In this document: positions 8,884 to 41,007 of the stretch, piece after piece
Layout: each line of letters opens with the position of its first letter
Numbering within the stretch: position 1 is the stretch's first letter
NCBI GenBank assembly: GCA_021432655.1
Contig: MU271593.1
Coordinates: forward strand, 1 to 41,007
Reading direction: 5' to 3'
From: Atractiella rhizophila
Lineage: Eukaryota
DNA length: 41,007 nt
Position numbers and translations under genes: made by a program
The notes under the pieces: generated by a model
Databases searched by the model: none
What the model was told of the DNA's origin: nothing
The model's input: the letters and a program-made list of their open reading frames with translations, nothing else

Positions 8884-11800
8884 ATGGAACATTCACAGCG
8901 ATACTCAGCAGGAGATACCAGAGATACCAGGGATATCACAAGGGATGTCAGGGAAGGGAGGGAGGGAAGAGACCCTTTTGTTACCATTCTCAGGTTGAGG
9001 CAGGAGAGAAATGAGTTGCTGGGAAAGTTGGACTTTGCCTACACTGAGAGGTGCGTCTTCATTCTGTCGTCATTCGTTCGGGGTATTTTCCACGTGTGCT
9101 ACCACTTTGTGAAACAACACAAGTTGAATCTTTCCTATATATTGCCACGAGAAGTGGAGAATATTTCTATAGAGAAAGAATGCCCTGGAGAGAGGTGCGC
9201 AACCTGGCGAGAGGGCAGGAAGATGTTCCCACTCAAGCTGTTCCATTTGCACCAGGGAAGCACGAAAACATGAGAAATGACGAACAAAAACAGGACTCTC
9301 CTCGCTCAATCCTACGACGAAGCGATGCACGAGCTTTCGCACCTGCAAGCCTCCAATTCTCACAAGGACGACGAGCTCAGCCGCCTACGCGACGACTTGG
9401 AAGGCACACGGGTGGCGATGGAGACGTTCAAGAGGCGTCTAGAGAAGAATTCAGAGGCTGCGAGGGCCAAAGAGGCGCGGATCAGCGAGTTGGAGCTCGA
9501 GGTCGGCGAGCACACGAGGAGGATCTCAGGGGGGAGTACGGCATCCGTCGGCAGTCAGACTGGACTCATTGAAGGTGCAGAGGGAGAGAGTGCGGATGAG
9601 CTGAAGAAGACTTTGGCGAGAGTGAGAAAGGAGAGGAATAAGGCGCTCAAGGAAGGTAGGGAGAGGGAGAAGCTGTTTGCTGAGCTCGTGAAGGAGGCTG
9701 AGAGGGTGGAGACGGAGAGGATAGAGAGGGAGGAGGAGGGGAGGAAACTGGAAGAGCTTGTGGAGCGGATGAAAGGAGAGCTGGAAGCGTTGAAGGGGAG
9801 GGAAGAACAGAGACAGATGAAGCTTCTATCTTCTCCACCAGCATACACTCCACTCGAACCCTCTTCCTCAAATTCTTCTGTCCACCAGCCAGGCCAACAA
9901 AGCGAGCCCGAATCTACTGTCGATGCCGCAGAAATTGCCTCCTTGCATTCCCAACTCGAACAGAAGACCCTTCTCCACTCCGAGGCTCTCGCTGGCATTT
10001 CCTCCTTACAGTCCGCAAATGCGAAACTCGAAGCTGACAAATGTTCCCTGGAATCGGAGCTGCGTACTATCAGAGCCGCTCACGACGCGACAATCGCCGA
10101 AAAGAATGAGATCCAGTCCCTTCTCTCGCTGTCCGAAGCACCGAAATCTGAAGTGCAGGAATCCGAGCCCTCACAGGACCAGGGCAAAGAAAGCCAGGAG
10201 ATGTCACCAGTCAAAGAAGTTAATGAACAGCCTGAGCAGGCAGAGGCTTTGCTTGAGAAGATGGTTCAGGAGAACCGAGAGCTTGAACTGCAGCTCGCTG
10301 CATTGACGACAGCCCTTGATGACGAACGTGCACAGGCTGAATTACTGCGCGAAGAGCCAAAGGCGACTGAAGAGAATGGAAATATGGTGGAGGTGGAGAG
10401 AAAGAATGAGGAGCTCAAAGATCAGAATAGGGAAATAGGTGTGGAGAGAGACAACCTGCGGACCCGTTTGGGAGAAGCTGAACAATCCTTGGTTCACTTT
10501 CGAGCACGGGTGGAGGAGCTCGAATCTTCACTCAGGGCCCTTGAAGCTTCAGCTGGCACCAATCTCTCTGAGCTTACGCGTGTGAAGGAGGAGCTACGGA
10601 CGGAGTCGTGTCGAGTCATTTCTCTCACTGAGGAGCTGGAGGTGTTGAGGGAGGAGAACGAGCGGGTGAAGGAGGAGAAGGACGAAATGGAAGGGTGGTA
10701 TTTCCAGCTTAAGGATGAGAAGGCGGCACTTAAAGGACGGTTAGAAGGCGTATGTTTGGAAAGGGATGGAGCGAAGGAGAAGGTGGACGTCCTAGAGAGA
10801 GACCTAGAAAAGGCACTGGAGGTCGGCGGAGAGTTGAAACTAGCGTTAGATGCTGCCAGAGAGGAGTCAGTGGTGGCGAACGATGCTCGAAAGCAGATGG
10901 AGAGGAAAACAAAGGAGGTCACGAGGGAATTGAAGACGGAGTTGGAGGTGTCTCACAGAGCGTTGGTCGACACCAAGGAGCTGTCGAAGGCTAAGGAGGA
11001 GGCGTGGGAAACCATGATTGATGAACTCGAGCAACGGCAGGAGGAAATTCTGAAGATTTCCGAGTCAAGAAATGAGAGTCTGGAGGAGGAACGGAAAATA
11101 GTATTGGCGCTCAAAGACGAAATCTCCAGTCTCAATGCCAAGGTCTTGGGAAAGGCTGAAAATGTGGAACAAGAGGTGAAGAGGGCTCATGAGGAAGCTG
11201 CAGCACTCAAAGAAGAGTACGAGCTGCAAATGCAGTCGTTGACGGGGATGAAGGATTCTGAACTCTCGTCTCTGCGACAACAACTTGTTGCATCTCAAAA
11301 CGACCTCGCAAGCACCGAATCCAGATTGGAAACGCTCAGTCATGACCTGTCCCAGTCAAGAGCCGATCAAGCGGAGAAGGATAGGAAGATAGATGAGCTT
11401 TTTGCACGTCTGGATAACGCAGAGGCGGATGTGCAAGCGTATGAAACGAGACTGGAGAATAGGCAAGAGGAAATCGAAGAGCTAGAGATCGAGTTGCAAG
11501 AGACGAGAGGTCAGATGGATCGAGTCGAAGATGAATTCCATCGGGTGCGAGAGCAACTCGCTTCCTCGAGACTTGAGGTGGCAGCGCTTTCGGAGACCGA
11601 AAACAACATTCAAAGCGCATATGAAGAGCTGAGAGAGCAGCTCACGGCACAACAGAACCAGCGAGAAAAGTCGGCCAACGACGCCGAAATATTACGAGCT
11701 GAAGTCCTCCGGCTGAGCAATCACCTTGAAGAGAGCGTTACTGCACTGGAGCGGATGGAGGAGGAGGCTCAAAAAGCCATTGCGTCTCGATGCGAGCTGG

Positions 11801-13036
11801 AGAAAGTCAACCGAACCCTAGACGAGCAGCTGCTGAGTGCGAAGAAAGAAGTAGCTGCCTTCATGGCTCGTTTGCAGGAGTTCTCAGTCAAGGCCCAAGA
11901 CGATGGTAGTCGAACGCACAATCGGGTGCTACAGCTGGAAGAACAAGTCAGAGAACTGGAAAAGCAGGTTGACGAGTCCTCAGAGCTCGAAAAACGCCTG
12001 GTGCAGAAAATATCAAAGTTGGAAGAATCCAAGCTTTATTTGAAGCGGGTGGAGGAAGAGCTCGCTGAGAAGACGGAGTATCTTGAACAAGCTGAGGATA
12101 GACTAAAGAGGCTTGATGCAGAACAGCAAATCGTGAGCTTGCAGTCCTTTTCGAGCATTAGTTTGACAGCCTTTACGTAGGCCGACGATCGATTATATGA
12201 GCAGATGAAGAAGTATAAGACACTTGATAAGGAGAACTGGAAGTTAAAGGTGAACTTGCCCTACCTGTTTAACTTAACTCCAAGCTCACGCTCCCCTGCA
12301 GACAATGGCCGAAAAGGCAGAACTCGCTCGGAAACAAGTCTCAGACGAACTCGACAAGCTCAAAGCAGTGCACCAAGAGCTGGTTAACAGTACCCATACT
12401 CCGCTGAGCTTACAGAGCTCCATTGCTCCAGCGGAAGCTGCCTCATTCAAACCCATCACCTCCCCTATCACCTCCGAACCTACCATTACCAGCACAGTCT
12501 CACTTACTGGGTCTCTGTCAAAGAAGAGGAACCGACCTCGCGAATTCGATGTTGTGGAAGCTCCAAACGACGCGAAGGCTGCTGATATACCGAAACAAAA
12601 CTCATCCTCGATGCGACGCACCCATTCTTCAGTGTCCTCTCAGGATCGGAGATCATCAGATGTCCGAAGGTCAAGCAGCAAGCTCGAAGCTCCGGAAGAC
12701 ACCGAATCGATGCCCAGAGCCAGATCCAAGTCCTCGAAGAGTTCTAAGGCGTCTTCCAAAGAAACTACAAAACTCAAGACTGCTTATTCTGATTTTCAAG
12801 GTGACGACGACACCACAGGTTTGTTTCACTATGCCGTCGAGGTGAAAGCTCCAGCGGATATGGAGGAGTTCGACGCTTCCATCTCACCGCCGAAACCAAC
12901 TACTCGCCGTCCTTTGGCATCTGTGCAGAAGAATACAAGGACCAAGCCAACCTCAACTTCATCGTCTCATCAGCGTTCGTCATCACAACAAAGTCAGAAT
13001 TTGATAGAGGCCATCAACAAGCTGCAACAACAATGA
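8884..13036 (+). CDS. Large coiled-coil protein (>1200 aa) with Ser/Thr-rich C-terminal tail; family not identified
   Basis: 967-codon E/K/L/R-rich heptad exon 9277-12180, short exons near 12181-12250, terminal exon 12305-13036. The 5' exon probably starts at 8884, but splicing at 9050-9295 is unresolved. Confidence 0.75.
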
Positions 13037-23706: not shown

Positions 23707-26465
23707 ATGGTGGATGATAGTGATTACACCACAGAGGTATGTCGCACATTCACCGTCAGGCCACCTGCTCACAAAAGCCAGGCGCTCACCACATTTGCTG
23801 AACTCGAAGAGAATAACTACCAGAACAAGTCACTGGGATGTACAAAGCATCAGGGAGAGGACATGGTCTGCGAATGCAGCTATAGTCCAGGTGAGTAAGC
23901 TTGCTTTAGGAACTAGCACGTGCGGCGTACTGAGAAGTCGCAAAGGGGAAGATGAGGAAGAGGAGGCATGTGGAGAGGGATCAGGGTGCATCAATAGACT
24001 GACCCAGATTGAGTGTCTCGAGGACGAATGCAGATGCGGCCCTTTCTGCCAAAATCAAAGGTTTGTGAAGACCACTTGCCCAGTTCTTGCATTGCTCAAC
24101 GCTCCGCCGTAAGGCGAGCAGGTTCCAGAAGCGGCAGTATGCCAATATTGATATTATCAAAACTGAAAAGAAAGGCTATGGAGTTCGCGCTGCCAGTGAC
24201 CTGCCTGCGTAAGTGGCTCCATTCCGAGCATTTATTGTCAATGACCGGACGTCTCCAGCGATGCCTTCGTGTATGAGTATGTCGGGGACGTCATCACTAA
24301 TCATACATTCCTCAAACGAATACGAGAATACGCTGATCAAGGTATTCGGCACTTTTACTTCATGCTACTCCAGAAGGACGAGGTGTGTTTAAAGCCTCAC
24401 GACTCATGAATTCTTTTGCTTCATCCTCTGTCGCAGTTTATCGATGCCACGAAGAGAGGAGGAAAGGGTCGGTTCCTAAACCACTCCTGCAAGCCTAATT
24501 GCTACGTTGCTAAATGGGTCGTCGGTCGCAAGTTACGCATGGGCATTTTTACGAAACGTGACGTTGCGCAAGGGGAGGAACTGACTTTTAACTACAATGT
24601 AGACCGTTATGGGTGCGTCCCAAGCATTCTATCGTTTTAGCGACTTTTTCTCACCGTGTTTACAGTCATGATCCACAAGAATGCTTCTGTGGAGAATCCA
24701 ATTGCGTTGGATACATTGGCGGGAAGACTCAAACGGATATCTCAGGGATGGACGACCTGTATCTCGATGGTGAGATTTGACACTCTTGGTTTTGCATAAT
24801 CTGAGGAGCTTTTATTTAGCACTGGGTATCACAGAGGAGGTGGAACAGTTAAGCTTGAAGGGTTCGAAGAAGAAGAAAGGGAAGAAGATGGATGACGATT
24901 ACATTGTAGGCCTATTTCTTTCTCACTCACAGAGTGTTAAATTCTCTGCAGCCAATTCTCAAGCCAATCGTACTGAAAGAAACCCCCAAAGTTGCCTCCG
25001 GCGTCCGACAGTCAGTCAACAGCCGTAGAATTTTGACCAAGCTGCTTTCTCGGATTAGGGTACAATCTCCTAGTGCTGTCTCTAATGCTCCCATGCTCAG
25101 AAACGAAAAATAGATGACCGCCGACGGAGCTGTTCAGAAACAGTTGATGCGACTACACGGCTTCAGTCTCATGAATAGTGTGTTGGACGAATGGCCAGCT
25201 GATGTTGACATTATACTTGAGGTAAGATACATGTTTCTTTGACGATCTTGACTAACATTCTCAAGGTCCTTCAAATTCTCTCACGTTGGGATCTAGTCGC
25301 TAAGAACAAGCTGCTCTCAACCTCGCTCGAATCCATTATCAAGAAGTATATCTCGTATGAGAGCGATCCAAACTTATCACAGTCTGCCACGGAGAATCCT
25401 TCGACAGAAGCGAAATGGAAGCAAGTGAAGGATCTTGCTCTCAGTGTACTTGCTTTCCCGTCTTTGTCCATGAATATGCATTCTCTAACGTCGGGCTTAC
25501 AGCTCGATTCAATTTGGAGTAACTTGGCAGTGGGCTATCGAATACCGAAGGGCATTCCAAGGGTGAGCCGTTAGGGTTAGAGGACTATGTTGAGATAGAG
25601 GCAGGCGCCGTCTCCCGAACCTGAACGTTGGATGTCCGAGCGCAAGCGGCAGCGGACCTATGACAATGCTCCTGTGGAATGGAAACGGTCACGAATCGAT
25701 ACAACGATCATTCAAAAGCCTCCTACGCCTATCATTGACTACCGCGCAGTTCAACCGCCAGATCTACCCCCGAATTGGTCATACCAACGAATGCCGATCA
25801 ACGGTAGACTGTATTTTTACCACGATTTCCTACGTATCACTCGTTGGGAGCCTCCGACTCCGGAAGAGGCAGCCCTTATTGAAGCTGAGATTATCGCCCA
25901 TACAAAAGCTGCTACAGCCCAATTGCCAGTCAACATAGACGACGTAGTCGCGCAAGCGAAAGCTGAAGAGGAGGCGAAGAACGCTCAGAGAGCTGCCACT
26001 GCAGCACCGCCTGCGGCGCAGTCAATCAACAAGGTGCCACCAAAAGAGAAAGAGAAGCATCATTCTGGTCCTTCTAAAACTCTCGATCGGGATAAGGAGT
26101 CATCGAAAGAGAAGCGCTTGTACAAGGTTTTCGGTCAAGTTGTTGTTGATACAATGTCACGGTATAAAGGGTCTTTTAAGGACAAGGAGCAATTCAAACG
26201 GCGGGCAAAAGAAGTGAGTATCTAACTCCAGTCTGATTACAAAGTCCCGCAGCCTAATTAGGATTCACAGGTGACAGAAATCTTGTGCTCAAAGGAGAAA
26301 AAGTCGCCCCATTACACCACTGAGACGTACATTGACCTTACTCCCGAAAAAGAAGCTAAGGTCAAGGCTTTTGTGAAAGACTGGACAAAGAAGTTACTCG
26401 CACGTCACAGCTCGTCGGCCAATCGTACCACTGATGGATTGAACCGGAGCTCTGAGACTACTTGA
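23707..26465 (+). CDS. SET2: Histone H3K36 methyltransferase Set2 (AWS-SET-postSET, WW, SRI), multi-exon
   Basis: [101 protein letters not shown] domain LPPNWS..YFYH..TRWEPP, SRI domain ending [11 protein letters not shown]. Confidence 0.96.
26022..26296 (+). repeat. 275-bp direct repeat, copy 1 (inside SET2; includes last intron)
   Basis: Identical by visual comparison to 27865-28139, from TCAATCAACAAGG to GTGCTCAAAGGA. Confidence 0.95.
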
Positions 26466-26538
26466 ACATCTCTCTTCAGTTTGTCACAGTAGATTACCTT
26501 GCAACAGCGTTCAAATTTCCTTCAGGTAAACCATCGTA

Positions 26539-27408
26539 CTAGTGGGCTAGTGGTGATTTGAGACCAAGCTCCTCGACTCTACCATCCATCAATGTCCATC
26601 TCTGCCCACTTGTCGGCGTGGCCACGAGGTCCGTGGTCTCTTTAAACTTTTGTCCCAACTTGAGAAGTATGTCAAGTGCTTTTCCGGCATCCTTCACTGG
26701 AGATTTAGACTAGAGGAGGCTTAGCACAGAGAACCGTCAGCTCCTTCGCTCCAATACCATTCAGAGATGAGGTACCATTTCTGTAACGTTGTAAAGTAGA
26801 TAAGGTGTGGTGTGCTATCATCCAATGTGCCAGGAAGGGATGATTATCATTTCAAAGCCGAACCCTTCCTGCAAGAGTGAGGCAGAGGAGAATATGATGG
26901 ATTGGAGCTCAAGTTTAAGTGGGTGAAAGGATTCCTTCATACGCTCTCAACCATTAACTCCGTCTGAGAAATGAAATCGTCTAAATGGCCCCATATTAGA
27001 CCAATTATGCCACATCCTAAGGCATAATTGGTAGGTATCCCTTCATGACGTAACTGGTCGACAATAAGGCAAAGTTTCCGAAACCTTGGAACAAACCTTA
27101 TATAGAAAGCACGACTGTTTGTACCACAACTCACCTATACTGCTGGGTACTTATATCGCTACCTACAATAACCCTTTCAAAAATATGAGCATACCACTAG
27201 AATACATGTCCTGTCAGCACCTTTCGAACTGTATAAAGCAAAGCTCATTTAAAATCGTTCTTATAACTGAGGCAAATGATTTCTTGGGCACTTTGGGCAA
27301 GATTTCCTTACCTACTCAAAGTATGTTGGTGAGGTATCACATTTGTAGTACAGTGTAGTCGGTATACATAGAAACTCAATGTAAGGTTGGTGCCAGTATG
27401 GTTAAATT
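26539..27408 (-). pseudogene. Spliced pseudogene of unknown function, convergent with SET2
   Basis: Phase-consistent exons 27196-27135, 27084-26943, 26868-26776 and 26709-26539 with GT-AG introns. Two adjacent in-frame stops (TGA TAG). A probable further exon at 27408-27312; the 5' part is interrupted by an LTR and the SET2 repeat. Confidence 0.6.
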
Positions 27409-27456
27409 CTGGGCATCAAAAATGCATTGATCAGTCAAAACACAGCATTAACATTG

Positions 27457-27700
27457 TGTTAGGGCTGACACTATGTGCGGTCGCCAACAGGCGATGTGTC
27501 TGTAGTGGAGGTAAACCTAAGAGAATACTCTCAGATCACCATCACTCCATCTCGATGTATATATACCCATGTAAGGGCACTGCCATAAACTGTAAAGTAT
27601 GTCTCTTGAAACATGTAGGATAGCTAGATCAGGAACATAACAAAGGGAATAATCGGAAATAATATTCTATTCCTCTAAGATTCATCAGTTCTTGGCAACA
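27457..27700 (-). mobile_element. Degenerate solo LTR, family A
   Basis: TGTT...AACA ends. Shares the core GAGTATTCTCTTAG..CTCCACTACAGA and TGGCAGTG with 29450-29919 and 35971-36384. No clear TSD. Confidence 0.6.
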
Positions 27701-27864
27701 GTCAGAAAATGCACTTTTGAGCCTTCATACCTCCCTCATGAGGCATATCGAAACGAAATGAATTACACCATCTTACTGCATATGCTTGCACCTTTCTGCA
27801 GCCGCAAGGAAATTTTATTCTAAAGGGAGTAAAAAATTACATTTCTTACTGAACTTGAACCCTA

Positions 27865-28323
27865 TCAATCAACAAGGTGCCACCAAAAGAGAAAGAGAAG
27901 CATCATTCTGGTCCTTCTAAAACTCTCGATCGGGATAAGGAGTCATCGAAAGAGAAGCGCTTGTACAAGGTTTTCGGTCAAGTTGTTGTTGATACAATGT
28001 CACGGTATAAAGGGTCTTTTAAGGACAAGGAGCAATTCAAACGGCGGGCAAAAGAAGTGAGTATCTAACTCCAGTCTGATTACAAAGTCCCGCAGCCTAA
28101 TTAGGATTCACAGGTGACAGAAATCTTGTGCTCAAAGGAAAAAAAGTCTCCACATTACGGTAAGGAGAGCTATATTGAACTTACACCAGAGAAAGAAGCC
28201 AAGGTAAAGGCTTTTGTCAAGGACTGGACAAAAAAATTGCTGAACCGGAACAACTCGTCAACACTATCCTCCAGCGGTCACAACAACGGTTTGATCCCAG
28301 AGCTCTCAGACGAATTGAGATGA
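27865..28323 (+). pseudogene. SET2: Second SET2 3' end (SRI domain): 275 bp identical to SET2, then a diverged alternative terminal exon
   Basis: No promoter or 5' exons. Intact acceptor at 28113 and open terminal exon [48 protein letters not shown]-stop. Confidence 0.88.
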
Positions 28324-28752
28324 ATGAATAATACCTCATGCACCTCATGCAGTCCACTGTTTTTTGACTGTATTGGTCTCTTGACTACACTGAATGTTCT
28401 ATTTATCAAAACATGCCTCTGGACAGAGGGTAATTTTAGAGTGCACAAAGTTTCAGAGCCCGCTCCTCGTCGAACTTGAAATTCCAAGTGAAACGTCTCT
28501 TGTTTCAAGTTCACGCTGATTTCCTCAGTCTAACGTAAGCAAAGGTTGTAGAAGTTTTCGTCGCTTTACGACTTCTGCCTTCTGCTCAACTCAAGTAAAA
28601 GCCCTTGATTGCATTTCATGTTACCCTGATGTCCTGAATTGCTTTCCTAGTCTCAAGGTCTTAACTGCCATTTAGATTCTGTCACACTTTTGTAGGTTTA
28701 CCGATATTGCAATCCATTCTAATTCTTTGTCCTTCTTTGTACTTTTGCAACC

Positions 28753-29433
28753 GTGAGAGAGACCGACTCGACATCATCACTGGAGCAGTGCCTAGCACGA
28801 TCTGACACGCTATTCTGCACGACGGCAACAACTCGTTCTGCCATCACCTTCCCATCACATCTCGATGTGAACAACTTGGCACCTAATCACGCCATTGTTT
28901 CCTTCATCTGGGAACATTGCTATATTGGACAGGATCCAATTCACAAATGACACCTATGCTGACGATGGAGATGGAACGTAGGGAGGGACGCGTCATCTGC
29001 TTTGCTGAAAGACGAGGAAGGGGCATCGATGTGCAAAGACAGCAGAAGGGCTGATGTGGATGGTCGGCATGAAGATGTGGAGGGGGAGTGGCTGTATGAG
29101 GCTGGATGGTCGTGACGGCTTGATGGCATGGCAGCGTGGCGGAAGTCAGTTGTTGCTTGGACTGACCCCGCTATCCTTGCTATGCTACACACCTGCAATC
29201 CAAAGTCAGTTGAGAAGAGATGTGGATGCCTTATTGACTTGAACAACTCACAATTTCTCCAAAAACCAAGCGAGAGGGCCAAAGGAGGTCTCGAAACTGT
29301 GCACTGGGGCTGGAGGAGGGATGGGAAGACAGTTGTCCGCACTCGCCGATTAGCTGTTTTCAAAGGAACTACCTCGAGGTCGGGAGTTGGCAAGCCTGTG
29401 GAGAGGATGCCGTGTTGGATAGTAGCCAGGTAG
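28753..29433 (+). pseudogene. Possible decayed ORF of unknown identity
   Basis: One reading frame of about 227 codons broken only by three TGA codons (28948, 28960, 29113). No recognisable motif. Confidence 0.25.
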
Positions 29434-29449
29434 GCTGAGAGGTGGAGGA

Positions 29450-29919
29450 TGTTGAGGGGGGGGAGGGTTCACTATGCTAGGAGAAGTTAGCGGTCGCCGA
29501 CGGACAATGTGTCTCAATGTGTCTGTAGTGGAGATAAACCAAAGAGCATGATATGACATGAGAAGACTAACTAGTAGTGGAGATAACCTAAGAGAATACT
29601 CTAAGGTCACCTCCACTACTCTCTGATCTATACACAAGCGGAATAACACTGCCACAAAATGTAGAGGAGAGCAGATGAAACATGTAAGAGAACTAAAAGT
29701 GACAGTGGGAGTAGCAGGGTTAATAAGAGGAGAATAGACACAATTGGGCTAAGTGGTGATGTAGATGCAAATGGGTGTACGTGTGACCGGGCACCAATTT
29801 AAACTGCTGGAGCAGTGACGACGGGGAACCGATTCATGTAGAATGCAAACAGGCAAACGGGCGATAGGAGACGCAACCTGGCAAACAGGCGCTGATTTGC
29901 AAAAGTTGTAAACCTGACA
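29450..29919 (-). mobile_element. Solo LTR, family A
   Basis: TGTTG...TGACA ends; homologous to the 27457 and 35971 copies; internal duplication of GTAGTGGAGATAAAC-like block. Confidence 0.7.
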
Positions 29920-32700
29920 GAAGGTCTGTTCTCAGTCATTTTGATCTTTCCAGACTTCACACCACTTCGAACAGAAAGAAGATGTCCTGAGGAGTCGTTC
30001 CAATCCATTTGTGCACCCTTCTGGAGGCAAAATGAGGGAAACATGAACCATTTGATGCATGGAAGCTTAACTTGTAGATCCCACCAATTCAAATATTTTA
30101 AGCTGAGCACTGAAAACTGTGACAGCTGGACCAGCTATTGCAGGGGAGATACACGAGGTTGAAGTTGAAAAAAGATTCCACTTTTTGATTTCTCTGGTTT
30201 CCCACTCTACAAGTAGGACCAGGTCAGACGCTGATTACGAAATCCATCCACATGCAATGAAACCTGTTTGCACATTAGTGAAGTACCTACAGCAGAAAAT
30301 AAAAGCCAGGGAAGGGAAGAAACACATAACATACCTTTAACCAAGTGCAGTCTAATCCAACTTCACCTTATCACAGCTACAAACTTTTCAAAGGGAAGAA
30401 GTGGGAGTTGGCAGACAGAAGGTGGATGTAGTAGCGAAGGTGCAACTTGATGGAACTGCTCCATCTAGACAGTGTGATTGATTAGATCCACGTAAGACTG
30501 AATGCAGGATTGAAGGTGAGCTTTCATGGTTCCCAAGCACTGCTTGCTGCTGAATATCCAAGTTGCACAGGAAGGTCTAAGCCAGTCTTGATAGTTGGGA
30601 ATGTGAAGGAGAGTGTGAACAATGCTGGGGCATGCAGAAAGGCGGTCATACTTGTACTGTTAATAAAGATCTTCATACTTCTCCACCGATTTACGATTTG
30701 CTCCTCAAATCCCAGAGATTCTCCTTTACCATTGAGTACTGGATGCAAGTGACAATGATCTTCCTTCAATCTAAGAAATGCTGGTAGTAAGGCTCCTTCA
30801 GGCAGTCTCAAAGGACGGAAAGGTCTGTGAAAATCATGAAATGTAAGAAATCCTCAGCTGTGAGGTCTGAACAGTCATCATGAAGGTTGCAGAAGTGCCT
30901 TCATTTTGGTTGCCTCTTCAATTTCTTTTCCAATTACCTCACAATCCTCCTTTAAAATCACATACTTATCCTTGTCTTCCTTACCAAATCCTTAAAGTCC
31001 CCTCTCCAGAATATGAGCAAATGCTCAAATGCTTGGTCATGTTTTTGATGGCAAGGTGCCTGAAATCTAATGGGCCAAGGAAAAAAATAATTACTGGAAA
31101 ATTCAACTAAATACAATTTCCATTGATCCTGCAAGCCTTAGAGACTTCTTCAAAGTTTCTTACACTGTCTGCTTCCTTTGCCTGTAAGCGAAAGGTTTGG
31201 TCACTTCATAATGGGAGGTTGTGTGTCCAATGCTTCAGTTTTGGGACAGGTCCCAAGTTTTAAGTTGTAGGGATATTCAATGGTCATTGAAGTGGGCAGA
31301 GTAAGTCCTGCCACGCAGAAACCCACCAGCTTCACAGGTGCAGCAGCATAAATTCCATTTGCACCTTTCATGTTCATCAATGTCTTAATAATAGCTTTGC
31401 ATGTCACTACACACCAAGCTGATGCATGTTGAATGGATTCAGTTTTCATCTCTGAGGACTAGGAGGAAAATCCTCGTACCATCTCGATTGCCTCTTCATA
31501 AAGAGGATGAAGAAACAAGAAACAAATCAATATCCTTTGGAGCTTTCAGGCCAGGAATGAGAAAAACGAGCCAATGCTCTTCATTATGACAGGACTTGGT
31601 GGGGGAAAGGTTGAGGAATTCATCAGAGTAAAAGCGAAGTGCAATATCTCTTGGGTCTTCAAAGTATTTATACCTTTGTTTCTTCCCATCAATCACAACA
31701 TGCTTCTGCTTCAGCTGTTGACAGTGTTTCCTATCAAGCACATTACTCCACTTTTCCTTTGTGATGCTGCTTGTGGCAAAGGTCATTTTTCTGCCTTTGT
31801 CCGTGTTTCCTGTCTCAGTTCGAAGGCATGGAATCTTTGGAAGATATTTCTAGACCTTTCTCGGTTCCGGCGCTGTCATAACAGGCTCGTTGCAGTATGG
31901 GCACCACTGATTGCTCTCATATGGAGGCAGTTAAAATTGAGATGTGAGCCTATGCTGCACTCAAACTCTTTTACTCGCAGGTCAGCGAGTGCCTCAAGTT
32001 TGTGTATGAGCTTATGCAGGCTTGCAATCTCTGGCCTATCTGGCCATGTTTCTTGCAACATATTAAAACCATGACGACTCATTCCAGCTTGAAAAAACTG
32101 AAAGCTTTCAGGATCTTTCTCACCTAAAGTGAGGTAACTCTCATCTTCAAACAGAAATAAATAATCAAAATATAAATTACAGAGGAAATGCACACCTAAA
32201 CAGTTGATCTCACCACCTGCATCCTCATCTGCTCTAACTGACCGATGGTACCATTGATAGAGCTCCTACGCATCCTGCTCATCATCCATGTGCTCATCTC
32301 CGGGCAGCCCATCCTCCAAAGAAGCATCGAACTGAGGCGATGCTCCAATTTCAGCAGCCTCTTCCTCCTCATTCCATCCAGAGTCATTATCTGATGGGAT
32401 AGGGGAAGAAGCTGCTCCACCATGTGTAGCATCAGGAGCATCATAAGGCTTTCAACCAGTTCCACAGTTACAACATGGCAGCCAAGTTGCAGCAATTTGA
32501 GGATATCCTTGCTGACCTAGATCAGCATTCTGTATAGACAGCTTACAAATATGGTGGGTTTGTTGATGACATCCACGCCCATGCAACGTCTTCCATGTCA
32601 AGTGTGCCGGATTTCGGTTTTGAAATATGTTCCGTAGTCGCGGAGGTTGCATTCGGAGCCGAAAATGAAGCTGCAAAGCGAATATTGTCTCTCCGTGTCT
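29920..32700 (-). mobile_element. Decayed CACTA/EnSpm (tnp2, Transposase_21-like) DNA transposon
   Basis: Fragments YFEDPRDIALRFYSDEF, FLIPGLKAPKDIDLFL and KTLMNMKGANG match fungal tnp2 motifs (DIAL..DG, IPGP..PKD.D.FL, GD..A..K..G.NG). Many stops and frameshifts. Termini not identified. Confidence 0.8.
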
Positions 32701-35970: not shown

Positions 35971-36384
35971 TGTCAGATTTGCATTCTGTGTGGATCAGTA
36001 CCCAGTCACCCATTGACTAAGCGCTACCCATTCACCTATTCATACTCCCTTCATTGATTGTACAAGTTAGCACACGTTTGCCTGTTTGTCTCTCCCATCA
36101 CCAGTTTGAATTTCATTGCCTGTTTGTGCCTATTAGTGCCATTTAAGTTTACTCTTTCTCCTCTTATTGACTCCGCATAATCCTGGTGTTGTGCTTCCCT
36201 TCTGTTTCTTTTCATGTTTCGTATGCTCTCTCTACACATTGTGGCAGTGTTATTCTGGTTGTATATACCAATTGGATTGTCATGTCATAGAGATGACCAT
36301 AGAGTATTCTCTTAGATTCATCTCTACTACAGATGCATTACTGATTAGCACCTGTACATAGTGTCTGGGTATCTATCTTTAACA
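35971..36384 (+). mobile_element. Degenerate solo LTR, family A (opposite orientation)
   Basis: TGTCAG...TAACA; shares TTGTGGCAGTGTTATTC and AGAGTATTCTCTTAG..ACTACAGA with the reverse complement of 29450-29919. Confidence 0.6.
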
Positions 36385-36830: not shown

Positions 36831-37708
36831 AGCTAATTATATTTACCTTCTTCATTTACTTATGGATCTGGTGAGAGAATCCAATGCTGGATGGAGCTAG
36901 GGTCAAACTGGTCAACATTTCGCATTTCAGAGTCCCAGGCTCTACTGCCTATGTCCAACTCTAGAAGGATGAAAGAAGCCACAGTTTAGCCTCCCATACA
37001 TACAGATATGCCTTCATAGGTTACTCTACCAGTGTCAGAGGTTGGGGTTTCGGGCGTCCAATCTCTATGGAGGTCTACACTTGAGATATCACAAATTTGA
37101 CAAAAAGGGAACTGCTTTCCAAAGTCAGGAGGAAAGAGAACATGTTGGAGCCGCCTTAGGGACTACTGGGCAAGTGGACAGCATGTCAGGATCAGGTGGG
37201 AGAAGGCAAGAGAGAACCTTGACGACCAATTCCCATCCTCTAGCTCCATCCAGCGTCAGATTCTCAACTGGTAGTGAGAGCAGTGGCTAGGGATTAACAG
37301 ATCAGTTTTGCCACCCACTTAGTTGAAATTTTGATCACTTAGCCATCCGTTGTCCAATCAGTTCAAGACTTTGGGATCATATATGAGACCTACTTACATC
37401 GCTATCCACCCATTTCTACAAAGGTCGGACAATCCAAACTCAAATTTTGTCACCATGGCCAAAGAAAGTAAAATTTGATCACCCCTCTCAGAGAGAAGAA
37501 CTATGGCACCTGGTGCATTGATATGCAGGCAGAATTGATGCGAAAGGGGTTATAGGAGATAGTTTCTGGAGTGGAAGACAAAGCCAGAAGATTTGAAGGA
37601 GCAAAAGCAATGGCAAAAGGACAGCTCCAAAGCGGCTAGGATCCTGTTCCTTAGCCTAGAAGCGACCCAGAAAGCCCATGTGGTCTCTGTTCTTCAAGAT
37701 CCAGTCAA

Positions 37709-38061
37709 TGTAAGGATCTAAGGCTAGGAGTAGTTGGTGGTCAATAATAAGACATTGATGAAGTATAGAGAGATATACCTAGAAGTAGTTGGTGGTCAAT
37801 AATGTACGAATTTGGGGGAAGATTCTCTGGATTTAGTGGGAGTGTCAAGAGACAGTTGCCCAGGTGGGAGTGTTAGTTGTAGTGTTGTTGTGTTGGTCAT
37901 CTGCCTCTTATGACTCTTATGAGTCATCAATATGTAGTTTAGTTCTGCCTATAAGTGTTGGTACTTATTATTGACCACCAACTACTCCTAGGTATGTCTC
38001 TCTATACTTCTCTAATGGCTCGTTATTGACCACCAACTACTCCTAGCCTTAGATCCTTACA
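37709..38061. mobile_element. Family B LTR pair: inverted partial LTR (37709-37802) fused to a complete LTR (37803-38061)
   Basis: TGTAAGGATCTAAGGCTAGG at 37709 is the reverse complement of the 38061 end. 37803-38061 is the reverse-complement homologue of 38407-38663. Confidence 0.85.
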
Positions 38062-38300
38062 GTGTCTGTGATGGAAGACCCAGTCACGATTTGGACCACC
38101 CTTCAAGATATCCATCAACAGAAGAGGTCTTCCATGCGTTTTTGTCTCTAAGCGCCCTGCTTGTTCTCCAGAAGAAAGAAGATGAATCCCTGGCCACCCT
38201 CTGTGTCAGAAGCAATCAACTCCATCTGGACTTTACCAATATGCTGTCCAACCACTATTCCCAAGGAGGACCTTCAATCCTTCACTCTCATTCGCTCTCT

Positions 38301-38380
38301 TGTTGAACCTTGGGTATAAAGGGTTAATCTGCACTGTTGGGAATGACTGGTCATTTTAGTGCAATTGGCTAAATCCAGCA
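38301..38380. mobile_element. 80-bp solo-LTR-like insertion with 5-bp TSD
   Basis: TGTTG...CAGCA flanked by TCTCT on both sides. The intact gag near 39750-39770 has a single TCTCT at this site. Confidence 0.8.
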
Positions 38381-38406
38381 TCTCTGGGCCCAGAATATGC
38401 CAGCTT

Positions 38407-38663
38407 TGTAAGGATCTAAGGCTACGAGTAGTTGGTGGCCAATAATGAGCCATTAGAGGAGTATAGAGAGATATACCTAGGAGTAGTTGGTGGTCAATAA
38501 TAAGCACCAACACTCCTAGGCAGAACTAAACTACATAGTGATGACTCATAAGAGTCATAAGAGGCAGATGACCAAACAACACACTACGACTAACACTCTC
38601 ACCTGGGCAGCTGCCTCCTGAAGCTCCCACCACATCCAAAGAATCTCACACCGAATTCGTACA
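38407..38663 (-). mobile_element. Solo LTR, family B
   Basis: TGTA...TACA, 257 bp, with tandem GGAGTAGTTGGTGGTCAATAA-like motifs; inserted at the end of the decayed gag. Confidence 0.85.
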
Positions 38664-39084
38664 ATGTATACTCGATATAAAGCATATTAGTTTTGCAGTG
38701 AAAAGAAGAGGGAAAGTCCTCGCACCCCTTAAAGCGGCGTCTTATAACCCCACAGAGGAGGAAAGGAATTTTATTGCGCCCCATAACTGCCTCATACACT
38801 TGGGCAGGGGCACAAACCCATCATAACTCGAAACTTGTCCACGCTGGCAACTGGAAGTGCCTTGTGTTGGATTAGCTGTTAAATTTCATGGTGTTGTCTT
38901 AGTGTGGTCAGCCACCTTTGCTGTGTTTCCTCACTTCGTAGTTTTTCTCCCTAGGGGGCAGTCTTGGTGGTCATCATTTTTGACCACCAACTCCTGTCCC
39001 CTAGGTATGTGTTTCCTCATCAATCCTATCATCTTTGACCACCAACTCCTGTCCCCTAGCTCCATCCAGCGTCTATTTCTCTCA

Positions 39085-39097
39085 TGGTAGCGAGAGC
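39085..39097 (+). promoter_or_regulatory. Primer-binding site, probably tRNA-iMet
   Basis: TGGTAGCGAGAGC immediately follows the LTR-terminal CA. TGGTAGC is the start of known iMet PBSs. Confidence 0.7.
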
Positions 39098-39282
39098 AGT
39101 GGCTAGGGATTGACAGATCAGTTGGAATTGCAATTTTCAATTTTGCCACCCACTTGGTTGAAAATTTTGACCACTCAGCCATCCTTTGTCCAATCGATTC
39201 AAGTCATAATCGAGACCCCTCCTAAGGCCCTATCCCCCCATTTCGACGAAGATCAGACGATCCAAACTCGAACTTTATCGCC

Positions 39283-41007
39283 ATGTCTGAAGAAAGTAAA
39301 ATTTTGATCACCCCCCTTGGAGAGAAGAACTATGGCACCTGGTGCATCGATATGCAAGCTGAATTAATGCGAAAGGGGCTATGGGAGATTGTGTGTGGAG
39401 AGGAGAAGAAGCCTGCTGATTTGAAGGAGGGAAAGCAATGGGAAAAGGAGCGCTCTAAAGCGGCAGGAATGCTGTTCCTCAGCCTGGAATCCACCCAGAA
39501 GGCTCATGTGGTGTCTGTCATTCAAGATCCAGTCAAGATCTGGTCCACCCTTCAAGAAATCCATCAGCAGAAGAAGTCTTCCACGCGTTTTTCGTCCCTA
39601 AGCGCCCTGCTTGCTCTCCAGAAGAAAGAAGATGAATCCCTGGTCACCCTCTGTGCCAGAAGCGACCAGCTCCTTCTGGACTTCACCAATACCCTGTCCA
39701 AGGACTATTCCCTCGATAATTTGAAGGAGGATCTTCAATCCTTCGCTCTCATTCGCTCTCTGGGCCCAGAATACGCCAGTTTTGTCCAAAACATCACCCT
39801 AATGACCTCAACTGATCTCAAATCGATTAAACAAGCTTTCTTCTCGATGCAGGCCACCAGGAACTCAGAGGAAGCCATCTCAAACACCCAAATGGCGAAT
39901 CAGGCGTCCAGCAGCAACAGGGGACGTCCTGTAGGACGTGGGAGAGGTGCAAGGAATGGTGGGGGATCTGGGAGAAGGGATTGGTCACCTGTGGGAGTGC
40001 TTCAACTGCCATAAGAAGGGTCATATCGCTTCCAACTGCCCTGGAACATCTTCAGAAGGCCTCAAATTGGAACGGCATAAAGCGAAGTTTGGGAAGTTGG
40101 AAGATGTTATGGAAGCCAGAGTCGAAGGAGAAGGGGGAGAATTTGCTGGGGAGACCAGCTATGCAGCGGTAGACGATGCCATTAGTCGCCAGAGAGCTGG
40201 GACTGACTGGCCTATTGATACAGGAGCAACTTCATCAATGACTCCACATTCCCACTTCTTCAAATCCTATCAAAAACATGTTGTACCCATCAGAGTTGTG
40301 AATGGAGAAGTGATCTGGTCTACTGGGATAGGAGAAGTGGTGATTGAGGCGAAATTGGAGGATAAAAAGTCAAAGAAGGTCACCATTCACAATGTCCTAC
40401 ACGTCCCCAAATTGTGCAGCAATCTCCTATCTGTTTTCAAGCTCACAATCTTTGAAGGTGTAACTGTGACCATTATTGGGAGCAGAGTACGCTTCCTCAA
40501 GGCCGGAAATCCACGCTTTACAGCGACAGTTGATCACAGGAGAGGAAGCATGAGTGCCATCATTGATGGAAGAACACTCATGGCCTCAGAATCTGTTGCA
40601 CACGCCTCCACTACCCCTCTAAACGCTTCCCTGTGGCATAGAAGACTTGCCCACTTAAATCATGAAGATATAAAGCGAATGCTGAAGAAAAAACTTGTGA
40701 AGGGAATGATTCTGGACTCAGAAGACGCTCCTGACCCCATCTGTGAGCCCTGCATCGCTGGGAAGCAGCACAGGATCTACAACAAGGCTGCAGAGAATAG
40801 GGAGATAGAAATTATAGGAAGGATCAGCTCAGATCTTCATGGACCACTCCCAGTTGCTTCAAGAGAAGGATTTCGCTATTGGGTGACATTTGTAGACGAG
40901 GCAACAAATCACTGGACCATTGCCTTTCTGAAGAAGAAGTCAGAAGCCCCGCAGCGCTTTAAGGAGTATAAGGCGATGATGGAGACCCTGACTGGAAGGA
41001 AGATCAA
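39283..41007 (+). CDS. Copia gag-pol with one frameshift near 39993
   Basis: Gag NYGTWCIDMQAELMRKGLWEIV; in the +1 frame CFNCHKKGHIASNC (CCHC), WPIDTGATSSM (protease), NVLHVPKLCSNLLSV, LWHRRLAH..CEPC, SDLHGP..YWVTFVDE (integrase). Confidence 0.9.

Follow-up and report, generated by a model that had tools for sequence, protein, structure and literature searches.

Two anciently diverged 3' ends of SET2 in Atractiella rhizophila and their tandem layout in the genome assembly

In one contig of the fungus Atractiella rhizophila (MU271593.1, assembly GCA_021432655.1), the gene SET2 is followed by a second version of its own 3' end, and both versions are introduced by the same 275 bp, which raises the question of whether the two ends lie in tandem on a chromosome or were only written so by the assembler. 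We analysed the whole stretch of DNA, 41,007 nucleotides (here called the window), together with contigs from four sequencing runs, X1 (DNA), X3 and X4 (RNA) and X5; the genome data of this species are described as unpublished in the part of PMC13347111 that was available. A previous, sequence-only reading had proposed that an 1843-bp cassette, formed by the first end plus cargo, was brought in by homology and may serve as a switch. We consider instead, with a probability of about one half, that the two ends, A and B, are alternative and anciently diverged forms of the locus that the assembler set in tandem.

SET2 and its two ends

The gene model built in this analysis places SET2 with end A at 23707..26465 on the forward strand, with 14 exons encoding 696 amino acid residues in the layout AWS-SET-WW-SRI. 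The modelled protein and P0001 are of equal length and 100% identical across the 203-aa exon, five GT..AG joints were confirmed in X3 RNA contigs, and the introns of the region measure 42–57 nt. Pfam profiles recognised the SET (82.9 bits), AWS (52.6 bits) and SRI (53.2 bits) domains, with the WW domain (18.6 bits) under its cut-off of 26.9, and the protein matched, over its full length, the solved Set2 chains 6nzo_S (E 4e-113) and 9wms_s (E 2e-112). The AWS-SET catalytic core plus a C-terminal SRI domain, present according to both the profiles and the structure chains, identify the host gene of both ends as SET2, an H3K36 methyltransferase, whose SRI domain is the part that binds the Pol II CTD. 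The protein collection holds a single SET2 from A. rhizophila (one member, one contig), so that the assembly is collapsed at this gene.

The direct repeat was reported as perfect and as including the last intron, and it is so: positions 26022-26296 and 27865-28139 match exactly over 275 bp and the identity stops in mid-exon. Copy 1 (26022..26296, forward strand) begins in the penultimate exon, of which it holds 192 nt, spans the intron 26214-26270 and takes in another 26 nt at the start of the last exon. Copy 2 (27865..28139, forward strand), which likewise holds the whole last intron (28057-28113), belongs to a promoterless 3' fragment of SET2 with in-frame stop codons just upstream. The donors, at 26213 and 28056, sit within identical sequence, and the acceptor regions of the two ends are identical. 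To the left, the identity extends by 0 bases, the flanks are unrelated and the join 27864|27865 lacks microhomology; to the right, blastn aligned 26022-26389 with 27865-28232 (94.8% over 368 nt), the stretch behind the repeat having 19 differences in 93 nt. It is the only perfect long repeat of the window, where the other repeat families are 77–91% identical, and the window contains no N.

Beyond the repeat, the A-specific coding part (26297..26465, forward strand) provides the second half of the SRI domain and a tail, and the B-specific part (28140..28323, forward strand) the second half of the domain and a longer tail, each including its stop codon. A recount over codons 9–43 of the last exon returned the 15 synonymous and 4 replacement codon differences previously given for 35 codons, and the later tails, described as loosely similar, align only loosely past codon 44 and then not at all. 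For the first 40 codons the Nei-Gojobori method gave pS 0.58, dS 1.13 and dN 0.065 (dN/dS about 0.06), so that silent sites are saturated, and the four replacement changes are clustered in codons 16–22, directly after the switch point. The two forms are 99.6% identical upstream of this point and about 80% identical downstream.

Both last exons score above the cut-off of the Pfam SRI profile (23.5 bits), A over profile positions 34–77 (28.6 bits) and B over positions 34–75 (27.0 bits), and these scores, together with the alignment with orthologue tails, indicate that each alternative end completes the SRI domain. In that alignment, of 30 tails taken from the 68 sequences with a blastp hit among 150 listed, A and B both look like ordinary SRI ends with mixed affinities, the nearest SET2 representatives being only about 50% identical overall and the informative stretch spanning about 35 codons. 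The SRI scores, the dN/dS and the transcription and splicing of both ends (see below) support the earlier claim of a long evolution of both as SRI domains, during which they have stayed under purifying selection. We also agree that a simple recent tandem duplication cannot account for the pattern, since it fails to explain saturated divergence beside identity.

Sequence between and around the two ends

The segment between end A and the second repeat copy, referred to as cargo (26466..27864), comprises the 3' UTR of end A, a spliced minus-strand transcript, AT-rich sequence and a high-copy short element. The transcript, seen in X3 contig 26271-26719+26776-26923, has an intron at 26720-26775 (CT..AC on the forward strand). 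The element begins at about 27453, and X1 depth over 27338-27838 is 8,000–55,000, against about 90–230 in unique parts; a second copy lies at 29490..29850 (X1 depth 26,000–57,000) and a third at 36206-36365 on the minus strand. None of the 27 stop-to-stop frames of at least 30 aa within 26408-27917 matched a Pfam family at E<=1, neither endonuclease, recombinase, integrase, transposase nor mating-type gene, and the cargo has no match among Rfam families or in a tRNA search. The proposal of a cassette acting as a switch is therefore unsupported, given a cargo devoid of recognised protein and RNA families and a junction that none of the listed contigs bridges.

Behind end B, the sequence 28324..28852 is represented in X1 by a single contig identical to the window (28110-28985, depth 93.6, 0 differences), and a variant contig (depth 114.9) was seen only at 28951/28955; from the bin depths, the second X1 allele seems to be alignable only from about 28853. 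A convergent transcript follows on the minus strand (28900..29490), with an intron at 29190-29248 whose joint 29189->29249 (CT..AC) is present in X3 and X4; no Pfam family was recognised in 28941-29393(-). Islands of 73–93% identity behind A and behind B (27477-27626 and 29490-29695) were considered as remains of an old colinearity and turned out to be copies of the high-copy element, the only sequence that tblastx found to be shared by the two regions.

The window otherwise contains ordinary housekeeping genes, with Pfam hits in 12 of its 50 long ORFs. The idea of a mating-type locus was rejected, since no homeodomain or STE3 gene was detected by Pfam among these 50 ORFs and the one permissive CAAX-like ORF (27185-27358, ending CSTV) is unconvincing as a pheromone gene. 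Searches for relatives returned, among longer proteins, only the window's own protein with the 203-aa exon and only the window's own SET2 (82% identity) with the B tail, which matched no protein of similar length. Among JGI metagenome contigs no relative was confirmed (589 pattern matches, 0 confirmed), and a 29-nt pattern covering both ends was unmatched.

Contigs at the locus and the readings of the tandem

X1 probably derives from the same strain as the assembly, as judged by 0 differences over 1216+876+304+266 nt of mostly non-coding sequence. Its contig 25093-26296 (depth 234.1) runs through 26021|26022 and ends exactly at the end of the repeat, and from there, with a 30-nt overlap, continue both 26267-27482 (A plus cargo, depth 179.9) and 28110-28985 (B), so that the locus has the shape of a fork, with A and B branching off behind the upstream sequence and repeat, and not of a cycle. 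Haplotype-specific sequences in the flanks indicate that the strain is heterozygous: downstream, two alleles are present at 28951/28955 (depths 93.6 and 114.9) and at 29109-29262 (depths 77.2 and 63.4; here the alleles differ by 12 substitutions and a 5-bp gap), and the upstream-plus-repeat contig differs from the window at 25224, 25319, 25492, 25493 and 26117, the last inside the repeat, where X1 has G and the window has C in both copies. At these variable sites the upstream letters of the window are all those of the set not present in the X1 contig, and its downstream letters are those of the window-identical contigs.

The other runs show each end attached to the shared exon. The X4 contig 25748-26213+26271-26499 leads from upstream sequence through the repeat (G at 26117) into end A, and the letters of this run at 29140-29177 are window-like. 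For X5, the letter at 26117 is C (contig 25976-26126), and end B follows the repeat in contig 27993-28056+28114-28200, which is spliced across the intron 28057-28113. In X3, the SET2 contig stops after 26 nt of the last exon, and two tail contigs follow, one for A, starting at 26271, and one for B, starting at 28114 and preceded by 4 exon letters. The RNA contigs show transcripts of both ends, each with the correct splice to the shared exon, and both spliced forms occur in X3. X4 has no cover of end B at 28006-28840 and X5 none of end A at 26169-26502, at depths of 2–5 at which holes are no proof. Similarly, the junction 27864|27865, where holes prove nothing, is not bridged by any listed contig piece or joint of the four runs, and the bin 27839-28005 has depth 0 in X1, X3 and X4 and 0.21 in X5; the second copy of the repeat is multi-mapped to the first.

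According to the reading we favour, A. rhizophila would have two forms of the SET2 3' end, near-identical as far as 26296, a point midway through the SRI domain, and anciently diverged beyond, each encoding a working SRI end and each expressed. The sequenced strain would carry A and B on different genome copies, as a dikaryon or a diploid, and the assembler would have put the A form, consisting of end A and roughly the next 1.4 kb, before the B form, writing the shared 275 bp twice. The product would be a false 'heterotype' duplication in which nothing is mobile, the join 27864|27865 would be artificial, and the perfect identity of the repeat copies would be trivial, since both would come from the same reads. 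The fork and the two downstream alleles of X1 count in favour of such a merge, and so do the X4 contig leading from the repeat into A, the X5 contig leading into B, the separate A-tail and B-tail contigs of X3 and the single SET2 of this species in the protein collection. The depth of the B contig (93.6), compared with 234.1 for upstream plus repeat, points in the same direction, although contig depth does not equal copy number. That X1 kept G at 26117 argues against C being present twice per haplotype, since C would then be better covered and, by our understanding of contig simplification, kept.

Other observations speak against the merge of alleles. A plus cargo is covered at 179.9, roughly double the depth of B (93.6) or of each downstream allele (63–115), which suggests that A plus cargo is present on both genome copies, so that the B-bearing copy would also carry A; a single figure per contig is no copy number, and this one could be inflated by shared repeat words. 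The window has coherent letters on both sides of the A insert, as if it were one haplotype, and in X4 end A occurs together with the window-like letters at 29140-29177. The lack of any N also argues against an artefact, since false duplications usually flank a gap according to the available part of PMC9516828. In addition, saturated silent divergence beside 99.6% identity requires an unusual history, for example balancing selection over a long time or the arrival of one form from a distant lineage. A merge of two dikaryon haplotypes had been named as the scenario that would overturn the cassette; it fits the fork in the heterozygous X1 strain at least as well as the cassette does, and no listed contig crosses the junction, but the window without N and the A depth of 179.9 are at odds with it.

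These same observations make a real tandem haplotype, able to loop out to B-only, a tentative alternative. In its recent version, which we regard as unlikely, the tandem exists in one haplotype: A and 1.4 kb were joined illegitimately before repeat plus B, or an A-bearing fragment was integrated, so that SET2 ends in A with B as a spare behind it, recombination between the 275-bp repeats deletes 1843 bp and leaves B-only, and both haplotypes segregate. The contiguous deposited sequence, a join resembling end-joining in its lack of microhomology, the twofold depth of A plus cargo, the coherence of the window around the insert and the X4 and X5 contigs agree with it, and perfect 275-bp identity suits a recent event. 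On the other hand, the X1 contig is unbroken at 26021|26022, where by our reasoning a second entry to the repeat should break a 31-mer graph, and it keeps G at 26117 though C would exist twice. Moreover, B is expressed and spliced in X3, a strain with both ends, which under the tandem would depend on a splice over 1.9 kb or on an internal start, and a prior ancient A/B dimorphism would still be required. Comparably doubtful is a more specific form, in which one haplotype has, ahead of the resident B, 1.4 kb together with an end A that diverged long ago and may have been imported, the whole being bracketed by the repeats, whose recombination would remove A and restore a B-ended SET2; the layout and the cluster of replacements could then be the relic of a WHO-like element minus its endonuclease.

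Improbable, in our view, is an ancient tandem in which A and B serve as alternative terminal exons (donor 26213 to acceptor 26271 or 28114), both kept by selection, with the 275 bp homogenised recently by gene conversion. It would explain the saturated silent sites and the dN/dS of about 0.06 without balanced alleles, and it agrees with the identical acceptor regions and with the splicing of both ends to the shared exon in the RNA of one culture (X3), although the donors 26213 and 28056 lie in identical sequence; yet the X4 and X5 contigs each lead into one end, with different letters at 26117, which looks genotype-bound and not regulated, among introns of 42–57 nt, one of 1.9 kb that encloses an antisense gene and a repeat element as well as a polyadenylated end would be an exception, no listed contig bridges 27864|27865, and an old tandem in a second species was not found among the proteins and JGI metagenome contigs searched. 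Very improbable is a WHO-type mobile gene-end-replacing element or programmed switch in which A plus cargo replaces the SET2 end and pushes the old one downstream, as the FBA1-like layout (identity falling from 99.6% to about 80% at a sharp intragenic point, a displaced 3' fragment behind the cargo) and the replacements clustered in codons 16–22 after that point might suggest, because the cargo has no endonuclease, integrase, transposase or other family in its 27 frames, no RNA family and no tRNA, the window has no mating-type genes, and the one displaced fragment, not a cluster, starts 275 bp before the switch point in a tandem that is itself putative.

In either layout, one fungal species keeps two very old, selected versions of the SET2 part that docks on elongating RNA polymerase II, and the change from A to B falls at a single sharp point within an exon, a pattern for which, outside mating-type and incompatibility loci, the main explanation so far has been yeast homing elements that replace gene ends. 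If the tandem is true, a chromatin enzyme would have a simple repeat-mediated swap of its targeting domain, and two SRI ends that bind the Pol II CTD would segregate in the species, which could switch between them in one direction. If the layout is an assembly artefact, the locus would offer a clean worked example of a merged haplotype imitating a cassette, in a strain heterozygous with locally very deep allelic divergence.

Comparison with known systems

Tandem exon duplications share with SET2 the two homologous last exons with identical acceptors, both spliced to the same upstream exon sequence; unlike in such duplications, the SET2 duplicate includes a piece of the preceding exon, splicing would have to skip 1.9 kb, and A and B appear singly in different samples. 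At the borders of mating-type idiomorphs, unalignable sequence starts abruptly in or beside a conserved gene, and in the unidirectional MAT switching of some ascomycetes direct repeats can delete the segment between them. SET2 resembles these systems in the abrupt start of unalignable sequence and in direct repeats that could delete the segment between, but the window has no homeodomain, pheromone-receptor or convincing pheromone gene, and nothing ties the SET2 ends to mating.

WHO homing elements at FBA1 of Torulaspora, as presented in the available parts of Coughlan et al., 2020 (PMC7282813) and Osborne et al., 2026 (bioRxiv 10.64898/2026.08.13.744650), affect, like the locus as assembled here, an essential or housekeeping gene with alternative 3' parts and an old 3' fragment beyond intervening DNA, and allele identity there changes from about 99% upstream to 80–85% downstream of a sharp point. 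By the same partial account, SET2 differs in that its intervening DNA has no LAGLIDADG/zinc-finger endonuclease nor any ORF family, in its single fragment, in the 275 bp shared before the switch point and in its basidiomycete host. The joining of a new 3' part with displacement of the old fragment is present at SET2 in the assembly, the join being confirmed by the listed contigs of no run.

The closest counterpart of the reading we favour is false duplication in assemblies. In the portions of Ko et al., 2022 (PMC9516828) that were available, heterozygous, more diverged regions can be written twice on one scaffold, wrongly filled gaps sometimes connect the false copies, and a depth at the haploid level is given as their hallmark. 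Against that description, the SET2 copies have no gap between them and the A contig is not at half depth. In agreement with it, a diverged haplotype region stands beside a near-identical one, both forms succeed each other on one scaffold, the B copy may be at about haploid level, as far as contig depth can show, and the flanks contain heterozygous sites.

The SET2 gene and its two 3' ends

We built by hand a SET2 gene model of 14 exons on the forward strand (23707-26465), encoding 696 amino acids with end A, and the only database protein encoded by the window that matched the query was P0001 ('SET domain-containing protein [Atractiella rhizophila]', 696 aa, one member, one contig). AWS, SET and SRI domains were found in the product with Pfam (WW fell under the cut-off), and it aligns end to end with solved Set2 chains (6nzo_S, E 4e-113). 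The closest relatives, in a search among 1.84 billion representatives, are just 51-52% identical, so none of them is a close sister sequence.

Two SRI ends exist, end A (26297-26465) and end B (28140-28323), each preceded by one copy of a perfect 275-bp direct repeat (26022-26296 and 27865-28139), which takes in the last intron together with the final 192 nt of the exon before it and 26 nt of the exon after it. The pair is the sole perfect long repeat in the window, an entire contig of 41,007 bp, and its identity has no leftward extension, the left flanks being unrelated. Past the repeat, ends A and B show 19 differences in 93 nt: codons 9-43 of the last exon hold 15 synonymous and four replacement differences, all four replacements lying within codons 16-22, and the first 40 codons give a pS of 0.58, a dS of 1.13 and a dN of 0.065 (Nei-Gojobori), while the tails farther downstream align only loosely. 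In Pfam, each last exon scores over the cut-off against the C-terminal half of the SRI profile (28.6 bits for A, 27.0 bits for B). The two ends split long ago and have been under purifying selection since. The sequence-only reading had described the repeat and the A/B differences correctly in every checkable detail (275 bp of identity, 15 + 4 codon differences).

Both ends are expressed as correctly spliced mRNA. Public runs were examined as Logan contigs (k = 31), and one of them, X3, is RNA, since its contigs cross five SET2 introns with GT..AG borders. In X3 the SET2 contig ends 26 nt into the last exon, and separate contigs for the A tail and the B tail follow, the latter starting with four letters of the upstream exon; the tail depths (29.8 for A and 105.6 for B) are both blurred by the fusion of each contig with a convergent antisense transcript. 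The long-standing functional dimorphism at the SRI end of SET2 is genuine and unusual.

Separate genome copies or tandem

The DNA run X1 probably comes from the assembled strain or a clone of it, since four of its listed contigs show no difference from the window over 1216, 876, 304 and 266 nt, most of this sequence being non-coding. Its upstream contig (25093-26296, depth 234.1) crosses the left border of the first repeat copy (26021|26022) and stops exactly at the repeat end, and is continued, with the usual 30-nt overlap, both by a contig with end A and cargo (26267-27482, depth 179.9) and by one with end B (28110-28985, depth 93.6). This upstream contig and the window disagree at 25224, 25319, 25492, 25493 and 26117; the last of these positions lies in the repeat, and both window copies have C there, X1 having G. 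Farther downstream X1 has a pair of alleles both at 28951/28955 (depths 93.6 and 114.9) and at 29109-29262 (77.2 and 63.4), and the strain is therefore heterozygous. Local heterozygosity is very high at 29109-29262, where the two contigs are separated by 12 substitutions and one 5-bp gap in ~154 nt, as compared with five differences in the 1204 nt that lead up to the end of the repeat.

With a probability of about one half, A and B are separate forms on the two genome copies of this heterozygous strain, merged by the assembler. This is suggested by the X1 graph, which forms a fork and not a cycle, by the roughly haploid depth of end B, and by the G that X1 keeps at 26117, where a tandem carrying C twice should favour the C path. 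Two low-depth runs from other sources also link G with A and C with B: in X4 a single contig leads from the upstream sequence through the repeat, with T at 26036 and G at 26117, into end A, and in X5 the contig across 26021|26022 carries C at 26117 and another is spliced from the repeat to end B. Moreover, sharp haplotype divergence is, according to PMC9516828, exactly where false 'heterotype' duplications arise.

That A and B stand in true tandem on one chromosome, as assembled, is a serious possibility that we rate below even odds. The window sequence contains no N and reads as one coherent haplotype on either side of the insert, the cargo/copy-2 join at 27864|27865 has no overlap usable by a graph error, A and cargo are covered twice as deeply as B or either downstream allele, and X4 pairs end A with window-like downstream letters. 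The separate-copies and tandem models each leave one quantitative hint unexplained. No listed piece or joint of any run crosses 27864|27865, to which we give no weight as evidence, since holes in contig cover prove nothing. A tandem could be a recent structural haplotype able to loop out to B-only, which we hold possible but unlikely; alternative terminal exons of ancient origin, with 275 bp homogenised between them, are a distinctly poorer candidate. The 1843-bp mobile cassette or switch of the sequence-only reading is very improbable and has zero positive support, whereas the old functional dimorphism that it also proposed stands.

The cargo and the surrounding window

The segment between the repeat copies (26466-27864) contains no noteworthy ORF, no Rfam family or tRNA was found in it, and none of its 27 stop-to-stop frames of at least 30 aa matched a Pfam family at E<=1. 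RNA contigs reveal a spliced antisense transcript (26271-27003, minus strand; intron 26720-26775, CT..AC on the forward strand) that overlaps the 3' end of A and holds just small ORFs of 40-65 aa with no family match. Behind end B, a convergent spliced transcript (28900-29490, minus strand; intron 29190-29248) is present in X3 and X4, with a 150-aa ORF (28941-29393) of low-complexity reading and no Pfam family. A permissive CAAX search over 26400-30600 gave a single match, a 57-aa cargo ORF (27185-27358, forward strand; C-terminal CSTV), unconvincing as a pheromone precursor.

Depth in X1 also marks a short element, which may be MITE-like, at 27453-27838 (start approximate), 29490-29850 and 36206-36365; its depth of 8,000-57,000, with 8,000-55,000 for the cargo copy, against ~90-230 for unique sequence, implies hundreds of copies. 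Its core (27457-27527) is present in X3, X4 and X5 RNA contigs with unrelated flanks, and the 29490-29850 copy includes a 22-nt inverted repeat (29573-29620). Old colinearity of the stretches that follow A and B was rejected, their weak similarity being this element alone.

Pfam matches were obtained for 12 of the 50 long ORFs in the window, and the neighbours are ordinary: patatin, a flavodoxin/FAD reductase, PEX6, a RING ligase, an ankyrin-FYVE protein and, at the contig end, a copia-type retroelement (37219-38575 and 39035-41005; gag, Pol beta-barrel, gag-pre-integrase) that exits on the right. Diverged direct (82-91%) and inverted (90-95%) repeats directly upstream of it resemble nested or decayed copies. 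An unbroken 968-aa open frame without Pfam family occupies 9274-12177 (forward strand).

Comparison with known systems

Mating-type idiomorphs have abrupt borders, and repeat-driven unidirectional switching relies on direct repeats. The SET2 locus has both an abrupt border and direct repeats but, unlike mating-type systems, comes without a mating gene in the window (none among the 12 Pfam-matched ORFs of the 50 long ones). Its closest biological analogue is the FBA1/WHO locus of Torulaspora, where, according to PMC7282813, identity between alleles drops at one position from 99% on the upstream side to 85% on the downstream side, and old 3' fragments have been displaced downstream. WHO elements are defined, in a 2026 preprint (bioRxiv 10.64898/2026.08.13.744650), by an endonuclease gene accompanied by a 3' half of the host gene that is resistant. 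The SET2 cargo has no such endonuclease (0/27 frames, Pfam) and is thus not a member of the WHO family; the locus may at most be WHO-like in its working, or a WHO relic.
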